From positions 1 through 31,382 of the forward strand of contig CAZGJX010000045.1 in the NCBI GenBank assembly GCA_964525635.1: a DNA stretch of 31,382 nucleotides, given 5' to 3'. Shown here piece by piece: positions 10,197-22,176 of the stretch. Position 1 is the stretch's first letter. Each line of letters begins with the position of its first letter. Under the pieces are notes generated by a model, which saw nothing but the letters and a program-made list of their open reading frames with translations, did not search any database and had not been told where the DNA came from. Origin of the DNA: an uncultured archaeon. GTDB taxonomy: Archaea > Asgardarchaeota > Lokiarchaeia > Sigyniarchaeales > SOKP01. Made by a program: the position numbers and the translations under genes.

Positions 10197-11102
10197 TCAT
10201 GAGATAGCGTCTCCAATTAAATTATCCAAATATTTCTTTAAATGCTTATATGGTTTTAAATCTCCACCAAAATCTTCTGAAAGAACTGTTTCTTTAGAGA
10301 TTTTATCTTTTAATTTGATAAAAACATTATTAATTTGATTTAAGTTACCAGTTGCGACAAAATCTAAAGAATATCCATGAATATAACCATAAAGAATTAC
10401 TATATTTTCAAGTTCTTCTCTTAAATCTTTGATATGAATTTCCTTTATGTTAGTTTGTGCTCTAATTAATGTGTTCATTGCAATTGTTGCTAATTTAGCA
10501 GATAGCTTTGAACTAAAAACTTCAATTCGTTCTTCATTGGATTCTTCTTTTAATGTATCAATAAAACCAATATTATATAATTTAGAAATAATAGGTAAAC
10601 CTTGATTAGAAATCCCACAGTATAATATTTTATTTCCATTTTCAAGATTTAAATCTTGATCCTCTAAAGATTCATTAGAATTTTCTATTTTTATATCATC
10701 ATTATATTTTAATCTTATATATTCAATTGTCAATGATATCATATCATGTAACATTGAATTTTCAGAAGCTTTTTCTAATAATTTGATTGAAGAATATGAA
10801 GCTTCTATTCTCTCATGATATTCTGTAATCATATTTTGAGTTTCTTCTGATTCTATATCAAAATCTCCAGATATACAATAAAATATATTTCTATTTTCAT
10901 CAGTTATAACATGTTCAATAATGATTCCTTCATTTGTTCCATTATCTTCAAAAAAAATACTATTAAGGCGCCAAATATGATTTGGATTTATACTATGAAT
11001 TAGTTTTTCAATAAATAAAATAGTCTCAAATAATGAATATTTATCTTCATTTGAACAGTAAATAACCTCTTCATCTAATATTATTGAGAATCCTGTTATC
11101 AT
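10197..11102 (-). CDS. Hypothetical protein with probable longin/roadblock-like domains
   Basis: Two beta-beta-alpha-beta-beta-beta-alpha-like segments; the C-terminal one starts ILYCGISNQGLPIISK...LSAKLATI...IKEIHI. Confidence 0.45.
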   Translation of the reverse strand: MITGFSIILDEEVIYCSNEDKYSLFETILFIEKLIHSINPNHIWRLNSIFFEDNGTNEGIIIEHVITDENRNIFYCISGDFDIESEETQNMITEYHERIEASYSSIKLLEKASENSMLHDMISLTIEYIRLKYNDDIKIENSNESLEDQDLNLENGNKILYCGISNQGLPIISKLYNIGFIDTLKEESNEERIEVFSSKLSAKLATIAMNTLIRAQTNIKEIHIKDLREELENIVILYGYIHGYSLDFVATGNLNQINNVFIKLKDKISKETVLSEDFGGDLKPYKHLKKYLDNLIGDAIS

Positions 11103-11466
11103 TTTTGAAAAACTACTAATTCAGAATATAATGTCTAGACTATTAAATCTTAAAAATTAATGAGAATATTAATTCTTTTTTGTTTTGGCATATGTTATAT
11201 TTATTAGGATAAAAAAATGGAATTTGGTGAGAGATTAAATTAAACTACTAAAATGAGAATTAGAGTTAAATTAAATGCAGAAAATTAGTAAATATTCGTT
11301 TTAGTGGCTTTTATTCAAAATAAATAAAGAATAAAAATTATAAGGTTCATATTTAAAATGATCAATAGTAAGTTATTTTATAACATTAAAATTATGATGC
11401 TAGGTAATCACACTGAAAATCAGCACCGATATATAACTTTAAGTTTAATAATAATTAAAAATAATA

Positions 11467-12279
11467 ATGTTTTCTGAGAGAAATATGGAATTTATAAACC
11501 CTAAAGAAGAACAACAAATAAAAAAAGTATGTAATATATTATTAAATTCTTCAGATGCTGTAGCATTAACGGGTGCGGGTATATCTACTAATTCAGGTAT
11601 ACCTGATTTTAGAGGAGAAGGAGGTATATGGGAAAAATACAAACCAGAAATATATGGAAGTATAAAAGCATTTCAAAAAGATCCAATGAAATTTTGGAAA
11701 ATGGCAAAAAAAATTGCTCCAAAATTATTTTCAGCAGAACCTAATCCAGGCCATTATGCATTAGCAGAGTTAGAAAAAGTAAATATTATAAAAGCAATAA
11801 TAACACAAAATATAGACCAATTACATCAAAAAGCAGGCTCTATCGTAGTCTATGAAATTCATGGTAATATTAATAGTTGTATTTGTCTTAATTGTAAAAT
11901 TAGTTATCCAAAAAAAAAATGTATTCAAATAAAGAAGAAAGAAAATTCTTTTCCACCTAGATGTGAAATTTGTTCTGCTCCTTTAAAACCTTCAATAGTT
12001 TTATTTGGCGAAAATATATCTACTTTTGAATTCTTCAAATCCCAATCATTAGCAAAAACTGCAGATGTAATACTTATAGCAGGATCATCTCTTTTAGTCA
12101 ATCCTGTTGCAAAATTACCATTGTATACTTTAAATAATGGAGGTAAAATAATAATTATTAATGATCAAAAGACATATTTAGATGAGAAAGCTGAAGTTAT
12201 TATCCATAATAAAACCGAAATTATATTGCCATTGATCGTAGAAGAAATAAAAAGAAAAAAAAATCTTGTCAGAAAATAA
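11467..12279 (+). CDS. cobB: NAD-dependent protein deacylase (sirtuin)
   Basis: LTGAGISTNSGIPDFRG, PNPGH, ITQNIDQLH, EIHG, CLNC/CEIC zinc site, LKPSIVLFGE, GSSL.V.P. Confidence 0.95.
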   Translation: MFSERNMEFINPKEEQQIKKVCNILLNSSDAVALTGAGISTNSGIPDFRGEGGIWEKYKPEIYGSIKAFQKDPMKFWKMAKKIAPKLFSAEPNPGHYALAELEKVNIIKAIITQNIDQLHQKAGSIVVYEIHGNINSCICLNCKISYPKKKCIQIKKKENSFPPRCEICSAPLKPSIVLFGENISTFEFFKSQSLAKTADVILIAGSSLLVNPVAKLPLYTLNNGGKIIIINDQKTYLDEKAEVIIHNKTEIILPLIVEEIKRKKNLVRK

Positions 12280-12330
12280 AATTATTCCTATAAATGATTT
12301 AATATTATATTTATTCTTTTAATAGTAGTA

Positions 12331-13920
12331 ATGAATTATGAATATAATACGATCATAAAAGATTGGCGGAATATAGATCTTTCTTTTGGATTGGTTTATC
12401 CAAATGTCTATAAAATAGGGATGTCATCATATACAATTCGATTTCTTTATTCTTTTATTAATTCTTTTAATAATATAGTTTGTGAACGATTTTTTCTTCC
12501 TGAAAAGAAGAGATTTCCAGCGTCGAAGGATTATCAATCTGAAGATTATATAAGAAGTGTTGAAAATAAAATTCCTCCAAAAAGATTTGATATATTAGGT
12601 CTCTCAATTCAATTTGAAAATGATTATAAGAATATTTTATGGTTTTTAGAAAAAGCAGGAATACCTATTTCTAATAAGATACGAATGAAAGAAATAATTA
12701 AAAATAAATCATATTATCCATTGATAATTGGCGGAGGACCAGTAATTAAATCAAATCCAATACCATTAAGTGAAATATTTGATGTTTGTTTTATTGGAGA
12801 TGCTGAACCAAATTTACCATCTTTCCTTAAATCATTTATCGATTACAAATTCAATAATCATAATTTAGAAGTATATCTAAAGAATCTTTTAAATATAAAA
12901 GGTCTATATATCCCAATATTAAATAATAAAGTAGAGAGAATATTTATAGAAGATCTTAATAATTCTCCAATTCCTATTGATCAAATAAGAGCAGAAATGA
13001 CATCAAATAAGAAAGTATTTGAAGAAAGTTTTTTTATTGAAGTAAATAGAGGTTGTCCATATCAATGCAAATTTTGTATATCATCCCATCATAATTCACC
13101 ATTTAGAAATAGAAGTCTTAATGAAATAAAAGAAGTTATAGAAAAAGCAGTTAATAATTCAGAATTTACTACAATAAGTTTAATAGGTTCTTGCATATCT
13201 GCTCATCCTAATTTCTATGAAATATGTGAATTTATTATTAACAAGGAGAAAAGGATAACTATTCCATCTATCAGAATAGATCACTTATCTCCAAAAATAA
13301 TAGATATTCTCGAAAAAGGAAATATAAAGACAATCACAATAGCTCCCGAAACGGGTTCAGAAAATCTACGATATCAACTTGGTAAAAAGATCTCAAATGA
13401 AAAAATTCACAATATATTCAATCTTATAAAAAATTCTAAAATTAAAAATGTTAAAATGTACTTTCTAATTGGAATTCCTAATGAAAAAAAGAGTGATATA
13501 GAGAGTATAATTAATATGATAGAAGATATTGATAAATTAAGGTTTGGTAAAAACGCTATTAGAGTTAGTATCAATCCTCTTATCCCAAAATTAAATACCC
13601 CATATGAAAAAGAAGTAGATATTTTTCTCGAAGAATATAAATTCAATTTAAAAATGAAATTTGATTTAATTCAAAGAAAATTAAAAAAATTAGCATCAGT
13701 CAATTTAAAGCTTCAAAATATTAATAGTCTAATAAAAAATGCAAAATTACAAACCTTAATTTCATTGGGAAATCAAAAAGTATCAAAACTTCTAATTAAT
13801 TACTACCAAAATGGTGCAAATTTTGGTGCTTTAAGGAAATCAGAAAAAATTATCAATTTCTCTATAAACGATTATTTCCTTAAAGTAAAAAATTGTTATA
13901 GTCCTTGGTTACTAAATTAG
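12331..13920 (+). CDS. Radical SAM protein with N-terminal B12-binding-like domain (TIGR03960-like)
   Basis: YPN.Y.IGMS, CER.F.P, IIGGGP, IGDAE, EVNRGCPYQCKFC (CX3CX2C), TIAPETGSE.LR, KMYFLIGIP.E, PK.NTP. Confidence 0.88.
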   Translation: MNYEYNTIIKDWRNIDLSFGLVYPNVYKIGMSSYTIRFLYSFINSFNNIVCERFFLPEKKRFPASKDYQSEDYIRSVENKIPPKRFDILGLSIQFENDYKNILWFLEKAGIPISNKIRMKEIIKNKSYYPLIIGGGPVIKSNPIPLSEIFDVCFIGDAEPNLPSFLKSFIDYKFNNHNLEVYLKNLLNIKGLYIPILNNKVERIFIEDLNNSPIPIDQIRAEMTSNKKVFEESFFIEVNRGCPYQCKFCISSHHNSPFRNRSLNEIKEVIEKAVNNSEFTTISLIGSCISAHPNFYEICEFIINKEKRITIPSIRIDHLSPKIIDILEKGNIKTITIAPETGSENLRYQLGKKISNEKIHNIFNLIKNSKIKNVKMYFLIGIPNEKKSDIESIINMIEDIDKLRFGKNAIRVSINPLIPKLNTPYEKEVDIFLEEYKFNLKMKFDLIQRKLKKLASVNLKLQNINSLIKNAKLQTLISLGNQKVSKLLINYYQNGANFGALRKSEKIINFSINDYFLKVKNCYSPWLLN

Positions 13921-14045
13921 ACATTTTTTTTTTCCTTGAAGATGATACATTTTTAAATCAATATAGACTAAATAATCCTTAAATAAAGAATAATTATCAA
14001 ATTTTCTTTTATTACTTTACTAATAGAAAAAAAAAGGATTCTAAA

Positions 14046-14358
14046 ATGAATAATTAAAAAATTGATATAAAATGTGATGATATTGACATCTTAATTGATG
14101 AATTTATTGAATCATTTGATCCTGCTTATTATTATCATACAAATCCTGATACTAAAAAAGTTAGATTATTTATATTTGAAAATTTTTCTTTTTTTTTTGC
14201 TGGAAAGTATTCAGCAATTATTATTATAGAATATGAGGAAAATAACATTTATTATATTGAAATTATAACCTGTGGAGGAATGAGTAGTGGGGGTTGAAAT
14301 GAAAGTTGTAAATAAAGTACCTAGTTTCTTTTTGGATAGATCAGAGGGAGTAAAATAA
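14046..14358 (+). pseudogene. Decayed small gene, DUF6054-like
   Basis: AAGGA then ATG AAT AAT TAA (stop at codon 4), followed by an open frame KIDIKCDDIDILIDEFIESFDPAYYY...RLFIFENFSFFFAGKYSAIIIIEY...IEIITCGGMSSG. A +1 shift at G5 (14289-14293) continues VEMKVVNKVPSFFLDRSEGVK*. Confidence 0.55.
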
Positions 14359-14464
14359 AAATTATATTTACATACTTTTTTTTTAGAAAAAACAAAATTA
14401 TCTTAATCGTAATGAGATATTCTCGAAATTTCCTAATAAAAAAAAATACAAAATATAAAATAGA

Positions 14465-14968
14465 CTATTCAATTTTGTTAAATGCTTTTTTTGCAGCTCC
14501 ACATACGGGACATTTATCTGGTGCTTCTCCTTCTACTGTATAACCACAAATAGGACAAACATATATATCTTGTTTTTGTAAATCTTCTCCCTTTTCAGCA
14601 GCCTCTAATGCCTTAGAATATAATTCATGATGTACTTTTTCAACTTGATTAGCAAAATTAAATGTTTTTTTCGCATCTAAGTTGTTTTCTTCTTCTGCAT
14701 CTTTCAAGAATTCAGGATACATTTTAGTAAATTCATAATGTTCACCTTCTATCGCAGCCTTTAAGTTTTCGATTGTAGTTTTAATTCCTCCCATAGTTTT
14801 TAGATGATTAAGGGCATGAACAGTCTCAGCTTCTGCTGCTGCCCTGAATATTCTTGCTATTTGTGGAAGTCCATCTTGATCTGCTTTTTTAGCAAAAGCT
14901 AAATACTTTCGATTTGCTTGGCTTTCCCCAGAAAAAGCGTCTTTTAAATTTTCTTTAGTTTTATCCAT
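14465..14968 (-). CDS. rbr: Rubrerythrin
   Basis: T.ENLKDAFSGESQANRKY, AETVHA, GEHYE...MYP, EKVH, CPICGY...CPVCG; start placed at ATG 14968. Confidence 0.95.
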   Translation of the reverse strand: MDKTKENLKDAFSGESQANRKYLAFAKKADQDGLPQIARIFRAAAEAETVHALNHLKTMGGIKTTIENLKAAIEGEHYEFTKMYPEFLKDAEEENNLDAKKTFNFANQVEKVHHELYSKALEAAEKGEDLQKQDIYVCPICGYTVEGEAPDKCPVCGAAKKAFNKIE

Positions 14969-15100
14969 ATTCAATCACATTTTTATATTTAAATAAATTT
15001 GGTTTGTATTGTATTTTAAATTAGGTATTATGAAAAAAAAATAATTAAGTTTAAAATTATATGAATTTGTTATTATGTAATCATATTTTCTATATAATAA

Positions 15101-15895
15101 TTATTTTTCATAGATACTCTTGAGAGATTTAATTATTTTTCTCGATAAATGTTCAGCAATGCCAAAATTAGTTTTAATATCAAAAATAAGTATTAAAAAA
15201 TGAGTTTTATTAATATATTCAGTATAAACTAACTCTTTATTTGAAGTAAAAAATAATCTTAAAATTGAATTATTATATATTTTTATTCTAAAATCTAATT
15301 GACATAATAATCTTTTTAGCTTTATTTGATTCAAAGAACTAAATACAATTTTATCTTTATTATTTAATAAAACCATCCCCTCTATCTCATTTTCTAAATG
15401 AAAATTCTTTAGGAATTTAATTATTTCTTTTTCCTTGGTTTTATCATAGCTATCGAATTTTTCCCCAATTAAATCATCTATAAACTTATTTATATTATCA
15501 TCATTAATGCATTCAACATTAATATTGATCTTATTTTCTACTACATAATCTCTAAGACGTTCATCTATTTTATTGATATATTCATTTAATAAAATTAGAT
15601 TTTGTTTTGAATGGCAGAGAAAACCATAGAAAAAAAAATCACGTTGTATTATAACTATTTTTACATTATTTATATTTATTGTTTTAAGCTTTTTTCCGAC
15701 CATCTCTAATGAAAAAGAAATTAATGCAGAACAAAACGCAGAAAGTAAATTATCATTCATTCTGTACATGCCTGTGAAGTTTCTACTATATAAACAAATA
15801 CCTGCTTTATTAAAAACAAAGAAATAATGTATATTAAGTAATTCAATTGATTTCTTGATGTTATTTGTTATAACAGAGTTATCATTTAAAGTCAC
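15101..15895 (-). CDS. Longin plus roadblock domain fusion protein
   Basis: N-terminal YFFVFNKAGICLYSRNF...NLLSAFCSALISFSLE...LKTI (longin); C-terminal IEGMVLLNNKDKIVFSSL...FLILIFD..TNFG (roadblock). Confidence 0.65.
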   Translation of the reverse strand: MTLNDNSVITNNIKKSIELLNIHYFFVFNKAGICLYSRNFTGMYRMNDNLLSAFCSALISFSLEMVGKKLKTININNVKIVIIQRDFFFYGFLCHSKQNLILLNEYINKIDERLRDYVVENKININVECINDDNINKFIDDLIGEKFDSYDKTKEKEIIKFLKNFHLENEIEGMVLLNNKDKIVFSSLNQIKLKRLLCQLDFRIKIYNNSILRLFFTSNKELVYTEYINKTHFLILIFDIKTNFGIAEHLSRKIIKSLKSIYEK

Positions 15896-16351
15896 ATTTA
15901 TTTTTTCATATTAAACTATAAAAAAACCTCTTTTCTTTATGAGATTTTTAAAAATTTCTAAAATGAAAAGAATAGTAGTTTTGTTCAATTTTATGTTTTT
16001 TTAAACTCTAAAATTAAAATGAATAAAATTAACCTTATTTATTATATCCTTTATTTTTTTTTTCTTTAGAACAATCGAGATTAAATTGTTGAGTATATGA
16101 TGAATATATTTTTGTAATGTAATTGAGAATTTATAAATAATCATTTAAAAGGCATTTAAAACCATTTTAATATCTTCAATTATAAGAATCTTGTCATTTG
16201 AGCCCTATTTCCCATTATTTCAACCTTTTATAGAATGCGTTATTGAATCTTTTATTAACATTCTATGATAACTTAACCTCTAAATTTAAATATAAGCATG
16301 ATAAATTAATAATTAAATACTTAAAAAAAAACATATTAAAAATTAATATTT

Positions 16352-16356
16352 GGAGG
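16352..16356 (+). promoter_or_regulatory. Shine-Dalgarno site of the histone gene
   Basis: GGAGG ends 9 nt before ATG 16366. Confidence 0.7.
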
Positions 16357-16365
16357 AATATAAAA

Positions 16366-16584
16366 ATGGCTAAAAAACCAGCAGCAGCAAAACCATCAGC
16401 TAGTAGCGATGTTTTATTCGTTAAAAGTAAAATCAGAGATTATATCAAATCAAAAGGATGCAATACCAGTGGAGATGTAATTGATGGTAAAGTTCTAAAT
16501 GGTAGAGTAATTGAACTTCTTGATAAAGCAGTCGCTAGAGCTAAAGCAAATGGTAGAAAGACTGTACAAGAAAAAGATCTTTAA
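16366..16584 (+). CDS. Short-alpha3 histone-fold protein (Bd0055/face-to-face-like) with N-terminal tail, 72 aa
   Basis: True start is ATG 16366, after GGAGG. VLFVKSKIRDYIKSKGCNTS.D.....LLDKAVARAKANGRKTVQEKDL carries the histone RKTV..D L2 motif and ends right after it. Confidence 0.85.
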   Translation: MAKKPAAAKPSASSDVLFVKSKIRDYIKSKGCNTSGDVIDGKVLNGRVIELLDKAVARAKANGRKTVQEKDL

Positions 16585-16620
16585 GGATATAATTATAAGA
16601 TCTTTATATAATAATAATTG

Positions 16621-16636
16621 TTTTTTTTTTTTTTTT
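16621..16636 (+). terminator. Oligo-T archaeal terminator
   Basis: T16 run 36 nt after the histone stop. Confidence 0.6.
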
Positions 16637-16892
16637 GTAATTGATATATTCAATTTAATTATTTATTGTCAGTAATTAACAAGGACTAGCATTTGAGGAT
16701 AATTAAACAGATCTAATTAAAAATTACTAAATCTTTTAGGTGTTTAAATTAATATTAATAAAAGCATTATTAAGTAAATACACATAATCTTTTAGGATAG
16801 AGAATAAATAAAAAATCATAAAAAAAATCGCCTTTTAATGGTCTCTTTATATTTTTATGCCTAGATTTTTTATTTAAAATTCTCTTATTCTT

Positions 16893-17426
16893 TTACTCTT
16901 TTGATAAATGTTCCACTTTATCAATAATAAAAAAACCTATTGATAAAACACTTGTCAAACGTTCAAGATTCTCTTTTAGTTTCTTTACTCTTTCATATGA
17001 ACCAGAAACTGCTATAATTTCCATACATTTTTCAAATTCTAAATGTATATGCATATTCGAGATGATAACATCAGAAAAATGATGTTGTATATCATTATTT
17101 AAAATAAAATCTGTTTGATGCACATTTGCATAGATAGGTTGAGAACTATAATTATGTTCATGATCAATTGATTCTTTTTCATGATGATCTTCTTCATCAG
17201 AATGTACATGATCTTCTGTGAAATGTTTATAGGTCATTATTAATGAAATGCAACCTATAACATTATCAGATATCTTTGATAGATTTTCCTGATTAGACAT
17301 ATAAGTATACATAGCTTTTCTTACGGCATTTGATCTAGAAATATCTAATTTCTCTCTGTATTTTTCAAATTCCTCATATAAATCTGGAGGTAATGAAACA
17401 GTAAATCGTTTATATTCTTCACTCAT
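16893..17426 (-). CDS. nikR: NikR-like nickel-responsive regulator with His/acidic insertion
   Basis: RFTVSLP..L...F......SRS.AVR (ribbon-helix-helix); QH, HIH and C.E Ni ligands (IQHHF...MHIHLEFEKCMEIIAV.G); HFTEDHVHSDEEDHHEKESIDHEH insertion. Confidence 0.8.
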   Translation of the reverse strand: MSEEYKRFTVSLPPDLYEEFEKYREKLDISRSNAVRKAMYTYMSNQENLSKISDNVIGCISLIMTYKHFTEDHVHSDEEDHHEKESIDHEHNYSSQPIYANVHQTDFILNNDIQHHFSDVIISNMHIHLEFEKCMEIIAVSGSYERVKKLKENLERLTSVLSIGFFIIDKVEHLSKE

Positions 17427-17475
17427 TATTTATACAATTTAATTAATAAAAATGTATATTCTTTTTAACTATATC

Positions 17476-18210
17476 TTATTTTCTTATAAATATAGCAATA
17501 GGAACACTTGCTTCTCTCCATTGAGCTATTTTTCCAGAGTATTCAAAGTTCATCCTGCTCCTTCCATGATCGCCTAGAATAATCATTAAGGAATTCTTTC
17601 TAAGTTGTTTATAATTGCTTATAAGCCATTTATCTGTTCTATTAATTAATTTTTCAATTAGATCTTCAGGAGTTTGTCGTCTTAATCTTTGTTGTTGTTT
17701 ATGAAGATTTTCAAAATCTAAATAATGCATCCAAGAGAGATCATACTTATTAATTGCTTTAGCAGATTCAATCCATGTTGCCATATCTGTATCTTTTGGT
17801 ATTGAGGTAGTACCTCCATCATACCTTTCAAGATCCTTTTTACGAGCAATAAAACATGTCTTTTTTCCACTATCATTCATATATTTTAGAAAGTGGAATC
17901 CATTTGGAGTAACTTCAAATCCACCATACATTATTTGATGGAGTACACCCAAAGTATAAGGATTTTTTGTACTTAATAATAACATTACCTCTGAATTCGT
18001 TATCATGAAGGATGGTTTGAAATAGGTAATCTCGAATAAACCAAAATTATCCAATAGATTTATGCTTACCCTTTCTATCCCTTTATACATCTCTACAATA
18101 GCCTCTATTGGTTTGGGAATTTTATCAGAGGGAAATTTAACATTAAATAAATCCAGAATTGTGGCTGGTACCTGTGAAAGATAACCTTTTATTGTTTTGA
18201 GTTCACTCAT
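17476..18210 (-). CDS. Compact alkaline-phosphatase-superfamily (PglZ/nucleotide pyrophosphatase-like) protein
   Basis: LSQVPATILDL, INLLDNFG, WMHYLDFE.LH, IILGDHG and VPIAI motifs. Confidence 0.6.
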   Translation of the reverse strand: MSELKTIKGYLSQVPATILDLFNVKFPSDKIPKPIEAIVEMYKGIERVSINLLDNFGLFEITYFKPSFMITNSEVMLLLSTKNPYTLGVLHQIMYGGFEVTPNGFHFLKYMNDSGKKTCFIARKKDLERYDGGTTSIPKDTDMATWIESAKAINKYDLSWMHYLDFENLHKQQQRLRRQTPEDLIEKLINRTDKWLISNYKQLRKNSLMIILGDHGRSRMNFEYSGKIAQWREASVPIAIFIRK

Positions 18211-18470
18211 TAGAAGTCATGCCAAAATAATTAATGTGTTTTATTAATCTAGTTATTTTTATTATTATTATAATAAAAACAATTTAATTATTTTTATTTA
18301 TACATATTTCTTTATTAAAAATATAAATTTACACTCTTATTTCATTATCTATATAATATTTGAATAAATACGAAATAAAAGAATAAATGAATCTTATGAT
18401 ATTTAATATTATTAAAAATGAAATTTTATAATGTAAATATGTTTAAAAATAAATAAATTAAAGATATATT

Positions 18471-18710
18471 ATGAATGCGAAAAAAAAAATAAATCTTATT
18501 GATCAGATATTAGAAAGATGGGAAGAAGGAACATGTTTTTATTGTGGTGGTATATTAAATGGTAATATGATAGATGAAGATTATGATGATATGAATTCAG
18601 ATACATACTGTCAATATTGTGGAAAAGATGTTGATCCTTACGATGAATGGGATAATAATTGCTTGAATGCAATTGAAAAAGTTATGAAAAACGAGAGATT
18701 TACCCCCTAG
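18471..18710 (+). CDS. Small acidic zinc-ribbon protein
   Basis: CFYC...CQYC pairs, 79 aa. Confidence 0.65.
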   Translation: MNAKKKINLIDQILERWEEGTCFYCGGILNGNMIDEDYDDMNSDTYCQYCGKDVDPYDEWDNNCLNAIEKVMKNERFTP

Positions 18711-18832
18711 CAATCATTTGATTATAAAAATCTATTTTTTTATTCAATAAACTTATGAAAACTAATGGGAAAATAATAGGAAAATAATAGATAGTAAGAA
18801 ATAATCTTATTTACAATAACAAGAGGGATTAA

Positions 18833-20116
18833 ATTATTAATTTAATATATATTGATACCACTAATTCAGGTATTTCAGGGGATATGTTTCTAGCAGCTTT
18901 ATTAGAACTAGTTCCTAATTCTGAGGAAATAATAAATGAATTATCTAATTTAAAGAATTTTTTGTCTGGTATTTCTAAATTAGAAATCAAATTATTCAAA
19001 ATAAAAAGGAATGATATTGCTGTAAATCAGTTAAACATTGACCTAAAAGAAAAAAAACAACATAGGACAGTCAATGAACTTAGAGTGAGCTTAAATACAT
19101 TTTTAGATACATATATCTTTTCTAAACCAGCTAAAGTATATGCAAATGAAGTTTTAGATCTATTAATAAAAGCAGAATCAGAAGTACATAATAAAATAGA
19201 AGAAAAAATACATTTACATGAATTAAGTTCAGTAGATACACTCATTGATATTCTAGGAGTTACTAAATGCTTAGATCAAGTAGGGGTATTTGAGGAAAAT
19301 TACCAAATTTACTCTAGCACATTACCAGTAGGAGGAGGTAATATAACCAGTGCTCATGGTTTGATTCCTATACCTTCTCCAGCGTCAGTTAAAATTTTAG
19401 AAAAATTTAAAATGAAAGTGAGACCTGGCCCAATTGAAGAAGAATTGAGTACACCCACAGGAATTGCATTATTAGTAAATTTAAAGCCAATAGTTGAAAG
19501 TCCTAATTTTATCTTAGAAAAAGTGGTAAGTAGTTCAGGTCAAAAGAAATTTAAAAGATTTATTAATGTATTTAGAATTCTAAAAGGAAATAAAAAGGAA
19601 GATACTATTTTGAACGAAATTCAATCCCTATCCAAGTATAGTGAAAAAGTATCAGCCATAGAAACAAATGTGGATGATGTTTCTGGTGAAATAATTGGAG
19701 ATTTTATTGAACTAATGGAAAATGATAAAATATTAGATATACAAATTATCCAGTCGATTACAAAAAAGAATCGCCCAAGTTATATTATTAGAATACTTTG
19801 TAAACCAGTATATAAATTTGGAATCATAGAAAAACTAATCACGAATTTAGGTACATTAGGAGTGAGATATTATACTATTAATAGAATTTGTGTAGAAAGA
19901 GAAATCCAAAAAATGAATATTGAAATCGATCAAAATAATTATTCCATAAATTATAAAATCTCATATTATCTTGATGGAAATGAAAAAAAAATAGTTAATA
20001 TTAAACCAGAATATGATAATTTAAAAGAATTAAGTCGAAAAACAGGACATTCAATTAGGAATCTACTTTTTCTAATCCAAACAAAATTACAGGATAAATT
20101 AAATGAGACTTTATGA
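18833..20116 (+). CDS. larC: Nickel pincer cofactor biosynthesis protein LarC (start probably ATT at 18833 or 18836)
   Basis: YID...SGISGDM (upstream of the called ATG), AESEVH...HLHELSSVDTLIDI, AHGLIPIPSPA, EL.TPTG, ETNVDDVSGE, KKNRP, GTLGVR, KPEYD. Confidence 0.92.
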   Translation: MINLIYIDTTNSGISGDMFLAALLELVPNSEEIINELSNLKNFLSGISKLEIKLFKIKRNDIAVNQLNIDLKEKKQHRTVNELRVSLNTFLDTYIFSKPAKVYANEVLDLLIKAESEVHNKIEEKIHLHELSSVDTLIDILGVTKCLDQVGVFEENYQIYSSTLPVGGGNITSAHGLIPIPSPASVKILEKFKMKVRPGPIEEELSTPTGIALLVNLKPIVESPNFILEKVVSSSGQKKFKRFINVFRILKGNKKEDTILNEIQSLSKYSEKVSAIETNVDDVSGEIIGDFIELMENDKILDIQIIQSITKKNRPSYIIRILCKPVYKFGIIEKLITNLGTLGVRYYTINRICVEREIQKMNIEIDQNNYSINYKISYYLDGNEKKIVNIKPEYDNLKELSRKTGHSIRNLLFLIQTKLQDKLNETL

Positions 20117-20305
20117 CTGAAAGATCTTTATTAAACAATTCTTTTATTTAGATTTATTTTTTTTACAATTATTATATAAAAAAGAAATAAAAAAAATATT
20201 TTAAATAGGTCCCACAGAAAACTTCCAATTTCTTATTTACTTATATCGATTCATTTTTAATTATATTCAATCCATATTAGGTTTAATAAATTAAAAATGA
20301 TTTCT

Positions 20306-20833
20306 TTAAAATTCATCTACATGGAACTTATTCATTATATAATCCTCTTCAATAGCCTCTTTTGAATATTCTTTTAATGATTTAAGTTTCAATTTTATCT
20401 CTTTAACATTCTTTATTTTTCCAAGGCCTTGAAAAATTTCCATTGCTTCTTTGTAAGTATTAAAGGATTCCTCAAAATCACCGCTTACTTCGAGGTCTTC
20501 AGCGATAAATATAAGACCTTCACCAACTTCCTTTTTTTTTCCTAATTTTCTTTGGATTTTCAAGGATAGCCAATGATGCTTCAAACTTTCAGCATATTTC
20601 TTAAAAATAGAGTAGGTTCTACCCATATCTCTCAGAACCAGAGCCTCTTCATCCTTTAGATCGTTATTCTTACAGTATTTCAAGAGATTTCTTAGGAAGT
20701 CAATATATTCCTTGTAATCTTTTGATTTATCTATGTTCAGAAGAAATTTCTCATATATATCAAGAGTATTTCTGACGCTGACGTCACCGCTTTTAAACAA
20801 TTCTTTTGATCTTTTAAAAAGATCATCGCCCAT
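20306..20833 (-). CDS. Tetratricopeptide repeat protein
   Basis: EALVLRDMGRTY...AESLKHHWLSLKIQRKLG and GEGLIFIAED....GDFEESFNTYKEAMEIF; ATG 20833 preferred over TTG 20854. Confidence 0.75.
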   Translation of the reverse strand: MGDDLFKRSKELFKSGDVSVRNTLDIYEKFLLNIDKSKDYKEYIDFLRNLLKYCKNNDLKDEEALVLRDMGRTYSIFKKYAESLKHHWLSLKIQRKLGKKKEVGEGLIFIAEDLEVSGDFEESFNTYKEAMEIFQGLGKIKNVKEIKLKLKSLKEYSKEAIEEDYIMNKFHVDEF

Positions 20834-21390
20834 AATTGCGACCATTAGTCTCAACTACGTTATTTTTTCAGTTTGTTTATTTTTTTTTGAATTTTTATTA
20901 AAAATAGTACAATATACATTATAATCAATGATATATTTATAGTTATTCCTCTTAAAAAATAAACTAATATTATTATAAACGGATAAAAAAATAAATCTAA
21001 TTAACCTTATCTTTTAGCTAAATTTCAATCAAATAATTATTTTATTAATTTATTATCTATTTAAATAAAGATTTCTCAATTTCAAGCTCCATTCCAAATA
21101 GATTTTAATTTTAACCTATAATTATATATATAGAAATTTATAGATTTTTAGAAAATTTACTATTTTTATTATAAATATAGTTTTATCATAGACAAAAAGG
21201 ATCTAATCAAGGTCATTAGGTTATACTATTGTCATTTGAGTTCAAAATATACATTATAAATAAGATCAAGATTAATAACTTCAAATTCTCAAAGCTATTG
21301 CATAATATTTAAAGATATTTCGCATTATGTTTTTGTTTTAAATAAATAAGATTTGGTAAAAACTAAATAAAAACATATCTACACTTAGGA

Positions 21391-22176
21391 TTAATTTATT
21401 TTTTTAACTCTATTAGCGATTAATGATGCAGAAGCTCCAGCACCAAAACCATTATCTATATTAACTACTAATAATCCTGGTGAACATGATTGTAACATGG
21501 TAATTAAAGCTCCTTTTCCTTTTTCTCCAAACCCATATCCAGAGGAAACTGGAACACCAATGACAGGAACATCTACTAAGGCAGCAATTACTCCTGGCAA
21601 AGTTCCCTCCATACCTGCGCATACTATAATTACATCTACTTTCTTTTTAATCATATTAGTCAATGGTTCGAAAATCCTATGTAAGCCCGCAATTCCAATA
21701 TCATAACTAGATATAGTTACACATCCCATTGCATTAGCTATAATTTTTGCTTCTTCTGCAACAGGAATATCAGAAGTACCTGCTGTAATGATACCAACTA
21801 TACCTTTCTTTTTAACAAAGTTGAAATTCTTTTTCTTTATTATGATTATTCTACCAGGTTCATTAATTTCAATATCATATTTTTCACTTTCATTATAATT
21901 TTTAATGATAAAATCTCTATGTGCCCTCTTATATCTTGATATTATAACAAAATGGTTTTCCTCTAAATATGATTTAATTATTTCTAATAATAATTTTGGA
22001 TCTTTCTTTTCAGCAAAAATAACCTCTGGTATACCAGTCCTCACTTCACGTAAAATATCTAATTTGGCTAAATCTTCTACAGATTTTACTATGTTTACTT
22101 TAAGTAAATTCTCTGCTTCTTCGATTGAGATTTCCTGTTTAGTAAGCTTTTCCAGAATATCTTTTATATTACTCAT
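21391..22176 (-). CDS. larB: Nickel pincer cofactor biosynthesis protein LarB
   Basis: D..R..RTGIPEVIFAE.K, TAGTSDIPVAEEA, DIGIAGLHR, AGMEGTLPGV, VIGVPVSSGYG, MLQSCSPG..VVNIDNGFGA. Confidence 0.95.
   Translation of the reverse strand: MSNIKDILEKLTKQEISIEEAENLLKVNIVKSVEDLAKLDILREVRTGIPEVIFAEKKDPKLLLEIIKSYLEENHFVIISRYKRAHRDFIIKNYNESEKYDIEINEPGRIIIIKKKNFNFVKKKGIVGIITAGTSDIPVAEEAKIIANAMGCVTISSYDIGIAGLHRIFEPLTNMIKKKVDVIIVCAGMEGTLPGVIAALVDVPVIGVPVSSGYGFGEKGKGALITMLQSCSPGLLVVNIDNGFGAGASASLIANRVKKIN

Follow-up and report, generated by a model that had tools for sequence, protein, structure and literature searches.

A predicted architectural histone of the face-to-face class in an uncultured Lokiarchaeial lineage and its variable N-terminal extension

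A short gene in a 31,382-nucleotide stretch of DNA from an uncultured Lokiarchaeial lineage (the window hereafter) very probably encodes a face-to-face (FtF) histone with a truncated third helix (alpha3), an architectural chromatin protein of that lineage. As judged from sequence and fold, the protein is a member of the FtF class, a class that is itself defined by a closed tetramer. Its N-terminal tail is real, translated and predicted to be disordered, and it is not a conserved sequence module. The histone family itself is already in the literature, and the classification sharpens one case from an uncultured lineage to the FtF type.

The window has a GC content of 25% and belongs to contig C45 of a 4.45 Mb genome assembled in 245 contigs. 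Where the sources of the relatives of its genes are named, all are Promethearchaeota/Lokiarchaeota MAGs. The histone gene and the signals around it are as follows:

16285..16292, + strand: putative archaeal TATA box TTTAAATA, 81 nt before the histone ATG
16352..16356, + strand: Shine-Dalgarno sequence GGAGG, with a 9-nt spacer before the histone ATG
16366..16584, + strand: coding sequence of the FtF histone, ATG at 16366, TAA at 16582-16584 (stop included), 72 aa by translation
16621..16636, + strand: oligo-T terminator T16, from reading of the sequence

The protein begins with MAKKPAAAKPSASSD (three Lys, three Ser) and ends with RKTVQEKDL. A mechanical list of ORFs opens the same frame at a TTG at 16243, which yields 113 aa. 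The earlier note held that start to be wrong, and the ATG at 16366 is indeed backed by the GGAGG, by the MAKK starts of the orthologues and by the TATA-like box TTTAAATA, which falls within the longer ORF. The protein has a single Met, and no ATG, GTG or TTG occurs in frame downstream; therefore the N-terminal tail cannot be skipped, and the start beyond the tail that the earlier note had named as an objection to its own reading does not exist.

The Shine-Dalgarno sequence and the gene's own terminator, both read previously from the window, are present and are conserved in the orthologous loci. GGAGG precedes the histone gene in 72 of 74 such loci, at a spacing of 8-9 nt in 62, and a run of at least six T (6-16, median 9) lies within 120 nt past the stop in 76 of 76. 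Among the 28 complete window ORFs of at least 90 aa a perfect GGAGG is found upstream of the histone only, and from most window genes a Shine-Dalgarno-like sequence is missing altogether. The nucleosomal histone genes of the genome have GGAGG too, according to their upstream in-frame translations (SGG, WRN). Because the genome has 25% GC a lone TATA-like match is weak; the evidence for the box is its conserved position, the starts of TTTAAAWA peaking 80-85 nt before the histone ATG in 74 orthologous loci. The box would imply a leader of roughly 50 nt, the transcription start being placed from the sequence. The leader region (16293-16351) holds repeated TTTAAA/TTTTTAAA-like boxes that are recognisable also in distant orthologous loci (L009-L088) and that may serve as additional promoter elements or form a regulatory leader. 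A search of Rfam with positions 15800-17000, at E-values up to 0.1, gave no match for the conserved leader or its flanks. With its TATA-like box, perfect ribosome-binding site and oligo-T terminator, the histone gene is monocistronic and probably highly expressed; its expression signals are strong, in agreement with the earlier note.

A histone fold had been read from the sequence, and structure prediction bears this out. AlphaFold2, run with an alignment of 82 sequences (A1, composed of orthologues and 50%-identity representatives), gave a monomer with a mean pLDDT of 86 and the helix order alpha1-L1-alpha2-L2-alpha3. In the model alpha1 spans residues 20-29, a helix at 36-40 is followed by a break at D41-G42, alpha2 continues at 43-61, and a one-turn alpha3 occupies 69-71. 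With the chain ending at residue 72, alpha3 is truncated as had been proposed. Foldseek placed HLp at the top (TM 0.92, rmsd 1.3 A), with HBb next and HTkC after it (TM 0.83); the top matches are all histones, and nucleosomal ones, among them HMfA and the Asgard histone HHoB, rank below. A sequence search of the PDB likewise gave HLp of Leptospira perolatii (9QT0) as the best match (E 5.4e-11), with HBb (Bd0055) of Bdellovibrio (8CMP, 8FVX) at about 6e-7 and HTkC of Thermococcus kodakarensis (9F2C) at 3e-4. Matches to curated families were all below threshold: 14.7 bits against a cut-off of 21.4 for Pfam CBFD_NFYB_HMF (PF00808), 15 bits against 21.8 for Pfam DUF1931 (PF09123), with 30 residues covered, and 16.9 bits against 50 for the NCBIfam archaeal histone NF043032. 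The class is therefore assigned from the solved relatives in the PDB, from the fold and from the FtF signature. Three stretches of the coding sequence are referred to below:

16366..16407, + strand: codons of the N-terminal extension MAKKPAAAKPSASS, 14 aa with Lys at positions 3, 4 and 9, predicted to be disordered (AlphaFold2)
16486..16497, + strand: codons of D41-G42-K43-V44, at a gap in the HMMER alignment with HLp and HBb
16537..16581, + strand: codons of R58-L72, the tetramer and L2 signature R-x3-N-x-R-K-T-x4-D-L-COOH

The FtF histones were defined by a closed, ring-shaped tetramer (Schwab et al. 2024). In the same work the alpha3-truncated superfamily is described as having alpha3 cut to 3-4 residues and alpha2 shorter by 4-5 residues than in nucleosomal histones. 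The FtF signature in the Haloferax protein D4GZE0 is R41, N45, R47, T49 and D54 in a chain that ends at residue 55, and the bacterial dimer histones are described as being without the tetramer Arg and Asn (PMC11390915). In HTkC, R45 forms a salt bridge with the C-terminal carboxylate of the opposite dimer, and the R45A substitution turns the tetramer into a DNA-bending dimer (10.64898/2025.12.06.692711). The window histone has the whole signature at identical spacing: R58, N62, R64, T66, D71 and the C-terminus at L72. R58 (HMM position 48) lies 14 residues before the C-terminus and aligns with the corresponding Arg of HLp and HTkC; N62 takes the place of the conserved Asn (HMM position 52) of the interface between dimers. 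In alignment A1 R58, R64 and T66 are more than 90% conserved and D71 is invariant; N62 is retained in the Asgard orthologues listed. The RxTxxxxD motif is read at R64, T66 and D71. A full alpha3 of about 10 residues, as in nucleosomal histones, is absent, and both curated cut-offs are missed. Fold and signature thus agree with the proposal of a non-nucleosomal, short-alpha3 protein of the Bd0055/FtF kind rather than an HMf-type one, and narrow it to FtF.

HLp (PDB 9QT0-9QT2; 10.1101/2025.05.08.652872) shares with the window histone the one-turn alpha3, the RD clamp and the tetramer Arg and Asn. Its DNA contacts in two co-crystal forms (A13, S14, K15, K17, K21, T27, G29, T56 and T57) map by alignment onto K20, S21, K22, R24, K28, T34, G36, K65 and T66; these positions are conserved or conservatively replaced. 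Both proteins have a short disordered N-terminal extension, although the two sequences differ. HLp is bacterial, lacks the DG insertion in alpha2 and has RTT in loop 2, where the window histone has RKT as nucleosomal histones do. HTkC (PDB 9F2C; PMC11390915; 10.64898/2025.12.06.692711) is an archaeal FtF histone with its Arg (R45, equivalent to R58) likewise 14 residues from the C-terminus, and it too coexists with nucleosomal histones in one genome; it is however only 34% identical, has neither the N-terminal extension nor the DG insertion, and comes from a hyperthermophile. The small DGKV insertion noted earlier at the start of alpha2 is confirmed as two residues relative to HLp and HBb, and it interrupts the alpha2 region (36-61) at D41-G42. 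It occurs as DGxxLN in every Asgard orthologue, so it is common to the whole Asgard clade and is not special to the window histone, and it is found in no solved FtF histone.

The N-terminal extension was measured in 78 genome orthologues as the residues ahead of the conserved [D/E]-x-LFVKSK. Lengths of 2 to 18 aa were seen (median 7), 50 of the 78 orthologues have exactly 7 aa, and MAKKAAV is the typical form. Seventy-six orthologues start with MAKK and the remaining two lack an extension. The residues that follow MAKK are mainly Ala, Val, Gly, Ser, Lys and Pro, and in 61 of 78 the MAKK pair is the only Lys of the extension. Besides the window histone with its 14 aa, extensions at least 14 aa long were found in its two congeners (15 and 18 aa) and in a single further lineage (15 aa). 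Members of the genus differ from one another at 3-4 of the 58 core positions; their tails have MAKKP in common, after which substitutions and indels set them apart. The tail codons contain a (GCA)3 run, which is compatible with slippage-type, indel-driven change in length. AlphaFold2 assigns low pLDDT to residues 1-14, with values below 50 at 6-12, and secondary structure begins only at residue 20.

The earlier note called this a eukaryote-like tail. It is a short MAKK opening that has been lengthened in this genus and a few more lineages. That it is disordered in the prediction and bears three Lys in 14 aa stands; conservation among orthologues, which the note had proposed as a check, is limited to MAKK, with a modal length of 7 aa and two tailless orthologues. 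MAKK also opens three of the five nucleosomal histones of the same genome, among whose six stand-alone histone genes the window FtF protein has the longest N-terminal extension. In a search of representative sequences Lys/Ala-rich tails were frequent on single-domain alpha3 histones; they are reported to be common on bacterial FtF histones, while archaeal ones 'generally lack tails' (PMC11390915). The free variation in length among close relatives, and the presence of MAKK and low complexity on unrelated histone classes of the same genomes, argue against a conserved regulatory platform. These findings agree with the published argument that histone tails of this kind come and go readily ('easy come, easy go'; Hocher and Warnecke, PMC10919886).

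The histone gene lies in a block of about 14 kb (10197-22176 in the window; loci L009-L088) in which order and orientation are kept across most of the family. The genes of the block are given in order:

Unknown gene, 301 aa: kept in 47 of 51 eligible loci
11467..12279, + strand: SIR2-family gene, 270 aa, full-length Pfam SIR2 match of 162 bits; homologue found upstream of the histone, in the same orientation, in 49 of the 53 loci whose flank is long enough
Radical SAM gene: kept in 53 of 56 eligible loci
Rubrerythrin gene: kept in 52 of 67 eligible loci
15101-15895, - strand: unknown gene, 264 aa, the divergent upstream neighbour of the histone gene; kept in 59 of 71 eligible loci
16366..16584, + strand: FtF histone gene
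NikR-like gene: kept in 71 of 76 eligible loci
17476-18210, - strand: unknown gene, 244 aa; kept in 67 of 70 eligible loci
LarC gene: kept in 53 of 57 eligible loci
TPR gene: kept in 49 of 54 eligible loci; further genes follow

Individual genes of the block are kept in 58-96% of eligible loci, or in 78-96% if the outermost gene is excluded. Both the 264-aa and the 244-aa neighbours are well conserved and gave no match in Pfam; homologues of the 244-aa protein in the family and the sister family share 51-88% identity with it. The SIR2 protein looks intact, with QNID and EIHG motifs and two CxxC pairs readable. Since its neighbours in the block are retained at about the same rate, the synteny of SIR2 does not stand out. 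Between SIR2 and the histone gene, which has a promoter-like box and a terminator of its own, lie a radical SAM gene and two genes on the minus strand. Genus g2, which has no FtF histone, retains the window-type SIR2 at 58-59% identity; in one of its genomes (G149) the SIR2 gene is 28 kb away from the conserved downstream neighbour. The SIR2 family is represented in the window's own genome by five matches (contigs C11, C45, C108, C47 and C171), with at least four intact genes and one degraded copy. The match on C171 has one TGA and four TAA, and with these internal stops it is probably a decayed copy. Over the 75-aa core segments given in the table of a 2026 preprint (10.64898/2026.07.02.735847), the window SIR2 is 51% identical to both LoSIR2a (74.7 bits) and LoSIR2c (55.8 bits), and its best full-length matches in two single-contig genomes of the sister family reach only 38-41% identity. 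Among LoSIR2a-c, as compared through the core segments and the sister-family genomes, no clear one-to-one orthologue of the 11467 protein was found.

Other readings of the histone and its surroundings have been weighed against these data. A protein that works as a dimeric DNA bender like Bdellovibrio HBb (Bd0055), with no closed wrapping tetramer, is unlikely in our judgement. HBb belongs to the same alpha3-truncated superfamily at about 47% identity, is the second-best match by both sequence and fold, and has the RKT loop and a chain ending one residue past the conserved Asp as the window histone does; the DG insertion in alpha2 could upset higher-order assembly, and R45A of HTkC illustrates that one residue can turn FtF wrapping into bending. 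But HBb, a dimeric bender known from bacteria only, has Ser and Asp in the columns of R58 and N62, whereas the window histone has the tetramer residues and for this reason is read as FtF-type; its named sources are all Asgard, its chain ends one residue past D71 as the carboxylate salt bridge requires, and its top match is the tetrameric HLp. It is more improbable still, to a degree that leaves it little weight, that this is a DUF1931-like histone-fold protein with some other role, for example as a dedicated regulator of the nickel genes (NikR/LarC) next to it. Several orthologues are titled 'DUF1931 domain-containing protein' in NCBI records, Pfam gives a weak DUF1931 match, and the NikR-like gene adjoins the histone in most loci. 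That match, however, is below the cut-off and covers 30 residues only, and in true DUF1931 proteins two histone folds are fused into a pseudodimer of about 138 positions that lacks DNA-binding residues; the window protein has one fold only, 58 residues long, in which the Lys, Arg and Thr contact positions are conserved. The NikR-like gene is convergent with the histone gene and not co-transcribed with it, and the neighbourhood is a generally conserved block.

A third reading concerns the tail of the FtF histone itself, which the earlier note saw as a regulated, eukaryote-like platform acetylated at Lys 3, 4 and 9, with the SIR2 protein encoded 4 kb upstream as its eraser. The predicted disorder, the three Lys, the intact full-length SIR2 and its recurrent upstream position on the same strand are what speak for it. 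In addition, SIR2 enzymes of cultured Lokiarchaea are reported to deacetylate Loki nucleosomal tail peptides in vitro and to rescue yeast sir2 silencing (10.64898/2026.07.02.735847), which makes deacetylation of the window tail chemically plausible. Yet Lys 9 lies in a segment that is missing from most orthologues, two of which have no tail at all. The block is kept as a whole, with no special place for SIR2, three genes intervene, g2 keeps its SIR2 without any FtF histone, and several other SIR2 genes are present in the genome. The same preprint found acetylation of Loki tails hardly detectable in vivo, and its work on modification omitted non-nucleosomal histones (10.64898/2026.07.02.735847). 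We regard the platform as improbable. No finding ties the 11467 sirtuin specifically to the FtF histone; that link is unsupported, and a role as a specific eraser is improbable, given the block-wide synteny, the SIR2 of histone-less g2 and the number of SIR2 genes.

The preferred reading, an FtF histone that acts as an architectural chromatin protein, suggests a mechanism by homology to HLp and HTkC. Antiparallel alpha2 helices would pair two chains into a histone-fold dimer, and two dimers would close into a ring-shaped tetramer. R58 would form a salt bridge with the free carboxylate of L72 in the opposite dimer, and N62 would pair with R64. The ring is expected to bend or wrap about 50-60 bp of DNA, with contacts predicted at the start of alpha1 (K20, S21, K22, R24 and K28), loop 1 (T34 and G36) and loop 2 (K65 and T66). 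Each ring would expose four disordered N-terminal extensions with three Lys apiece. These should emerge beside the alpha1 contact site and would most likely add non-specific electrostatic contacts, their length drifting freely among lineages with MAKK alone fixed. Tetramer formation, DNA wrapping, abundance and tail function are in this case inferred. High abundance of FtF histones is described for Haloferax, Thermococcus and Leptospira (PMC11390915), and in a Heimdallarchaeon they constitute 3.4% of the proteome (10.64898/2026.07.02.735847, Table S1). Given five nucleosomal-type genes in the same genome, the window histone may instead be only a minor part of the chromatin, the role once ascribed to HTkC.

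FtF histones have already been reported in Asgard archaea (10.64898/2025.12.06.692711), and public records call the present proteins 'DUF1931' or 'histone H3/H4'. A database clustered at 90% contains 314 homologues of 64-74 aa, whose named sources are all Loki-, Hermod-, Hod- and Prometh-archaeal MAGs. In a scan of 400 genomes of the phylum, strong orthologue matches were found in 125 of the 134 genomes of the window's GTDB family (Lokiarchaeia); several other families gave FtF matches that were weaker (1e-9 to 1e-13). No FtF histone was detected in the five genomes of genus g2 of the window's family, nor any FtF orthologue in the sister family (14 genomes), to which the cultured Loki strains seem to belong. 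The alpha3 histone is reported to be absent from strains B35, B36, MK-D1 and MK-D2, and the cultured strains have one or two HLoC-family genes and tailed nucleosomal HLoB histones (10.64898/2026.07.02.735847).

In several archaea and bacteria FtF histones now count among the main organisers of chromatin, and Asgard chromatin is studied as the nearest prokaryotic model for the origin of the eukaryotic nucleosome. Here an FtF histone with strong expression signals and high conservation is maintained in a large, uncultured family of Lokiarchaeia. As the cultured Loki strains are reported to lack it, work on them alone misses a component of Asgard chromatin. It is conceivable, though we would give it small odds, that the FtF histone is a major one in the family and that its tail is acetylated and deacetylated by the HAT/SIR2 machinery that acts on the tailed nucleosomal Loki histones. 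If the tail were so modified, tail-based chromatin regulation would reach a non-nucleosomal, ring-forming histone.

The HLoB and HLoC histones (10.64898/2026.07.02.735847) are of the same archaeal class and, like the window histone, have N-termini with MAKK followed by Lys/Ala/Pro-rich low complexity. HLoB differs in its full alpha3 and in tails of about 25 aa with at least nine Lys, against three in 14 in the window. HLoC has been labelled a 'face-to-face histone' (10.64898/2026.07.02.735847). It is however a distinct family of 76 aa, and a search of the genome with HLoC.1 was empty; identity of the window histone with HLoC was rejected.

The five nucleosomal-type histone genes of the genome score 37-42 bits and have no more than seven residues before the core. 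One on contig C5 (L005, 1486-1707, - strand) is of the HLoB type, with a core that reads YIAKAPIRRLMK...KRKRITAADI, and in the window's genus MAKKAEG precedes this core. The HLoB-type tails of related genomes (L110, L111, L114 and L117-L135) range from 3 to 55 aa and are of low complexity like the FtF tail; lengths of 12-24 aa are seen in related genomes and 55 aa in one, and in cultured Loki strains the tail has about 25 aa. An inverse relation between FtF and HLoB tail lengths was considered, with FtF tails of 14-18 aa and HLoB-type tails of 7 aa in the window's genus, and HLoB-type tails of 14 aa in genera g11 and g12. It was rejected because, among ten more genomes compared, those with FtF tails of 12 and 15 aa have HLoB tails of 24 aa.

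A second FtF-like fold is found at residues ~165-225 of a protein on contig C163 (L008, 1054-3198, + strand, open at the 3' end), followed by many TPR repeats. It is 47% identical to residues 7-72 of the window histone. Its tetramer Arg is replaced (Q-A-K-R-N-N-R-D), so that it probably forms no ring. The second match seen in many genomes of the family may be this histone-TPR fusion, and a related representative of 888 aa (P0179) has a TIR domain at its end as well. Many other representative relatives, P0121, P0123, P0124 and P0127-P0131 among them, are either natural tandem doublets of about 118-128 aa, in which two stretches match, or proteins of 245-288 aa that contain two histone-fold stretches; a Pfam scan of two of these relatives gave no confident domain.
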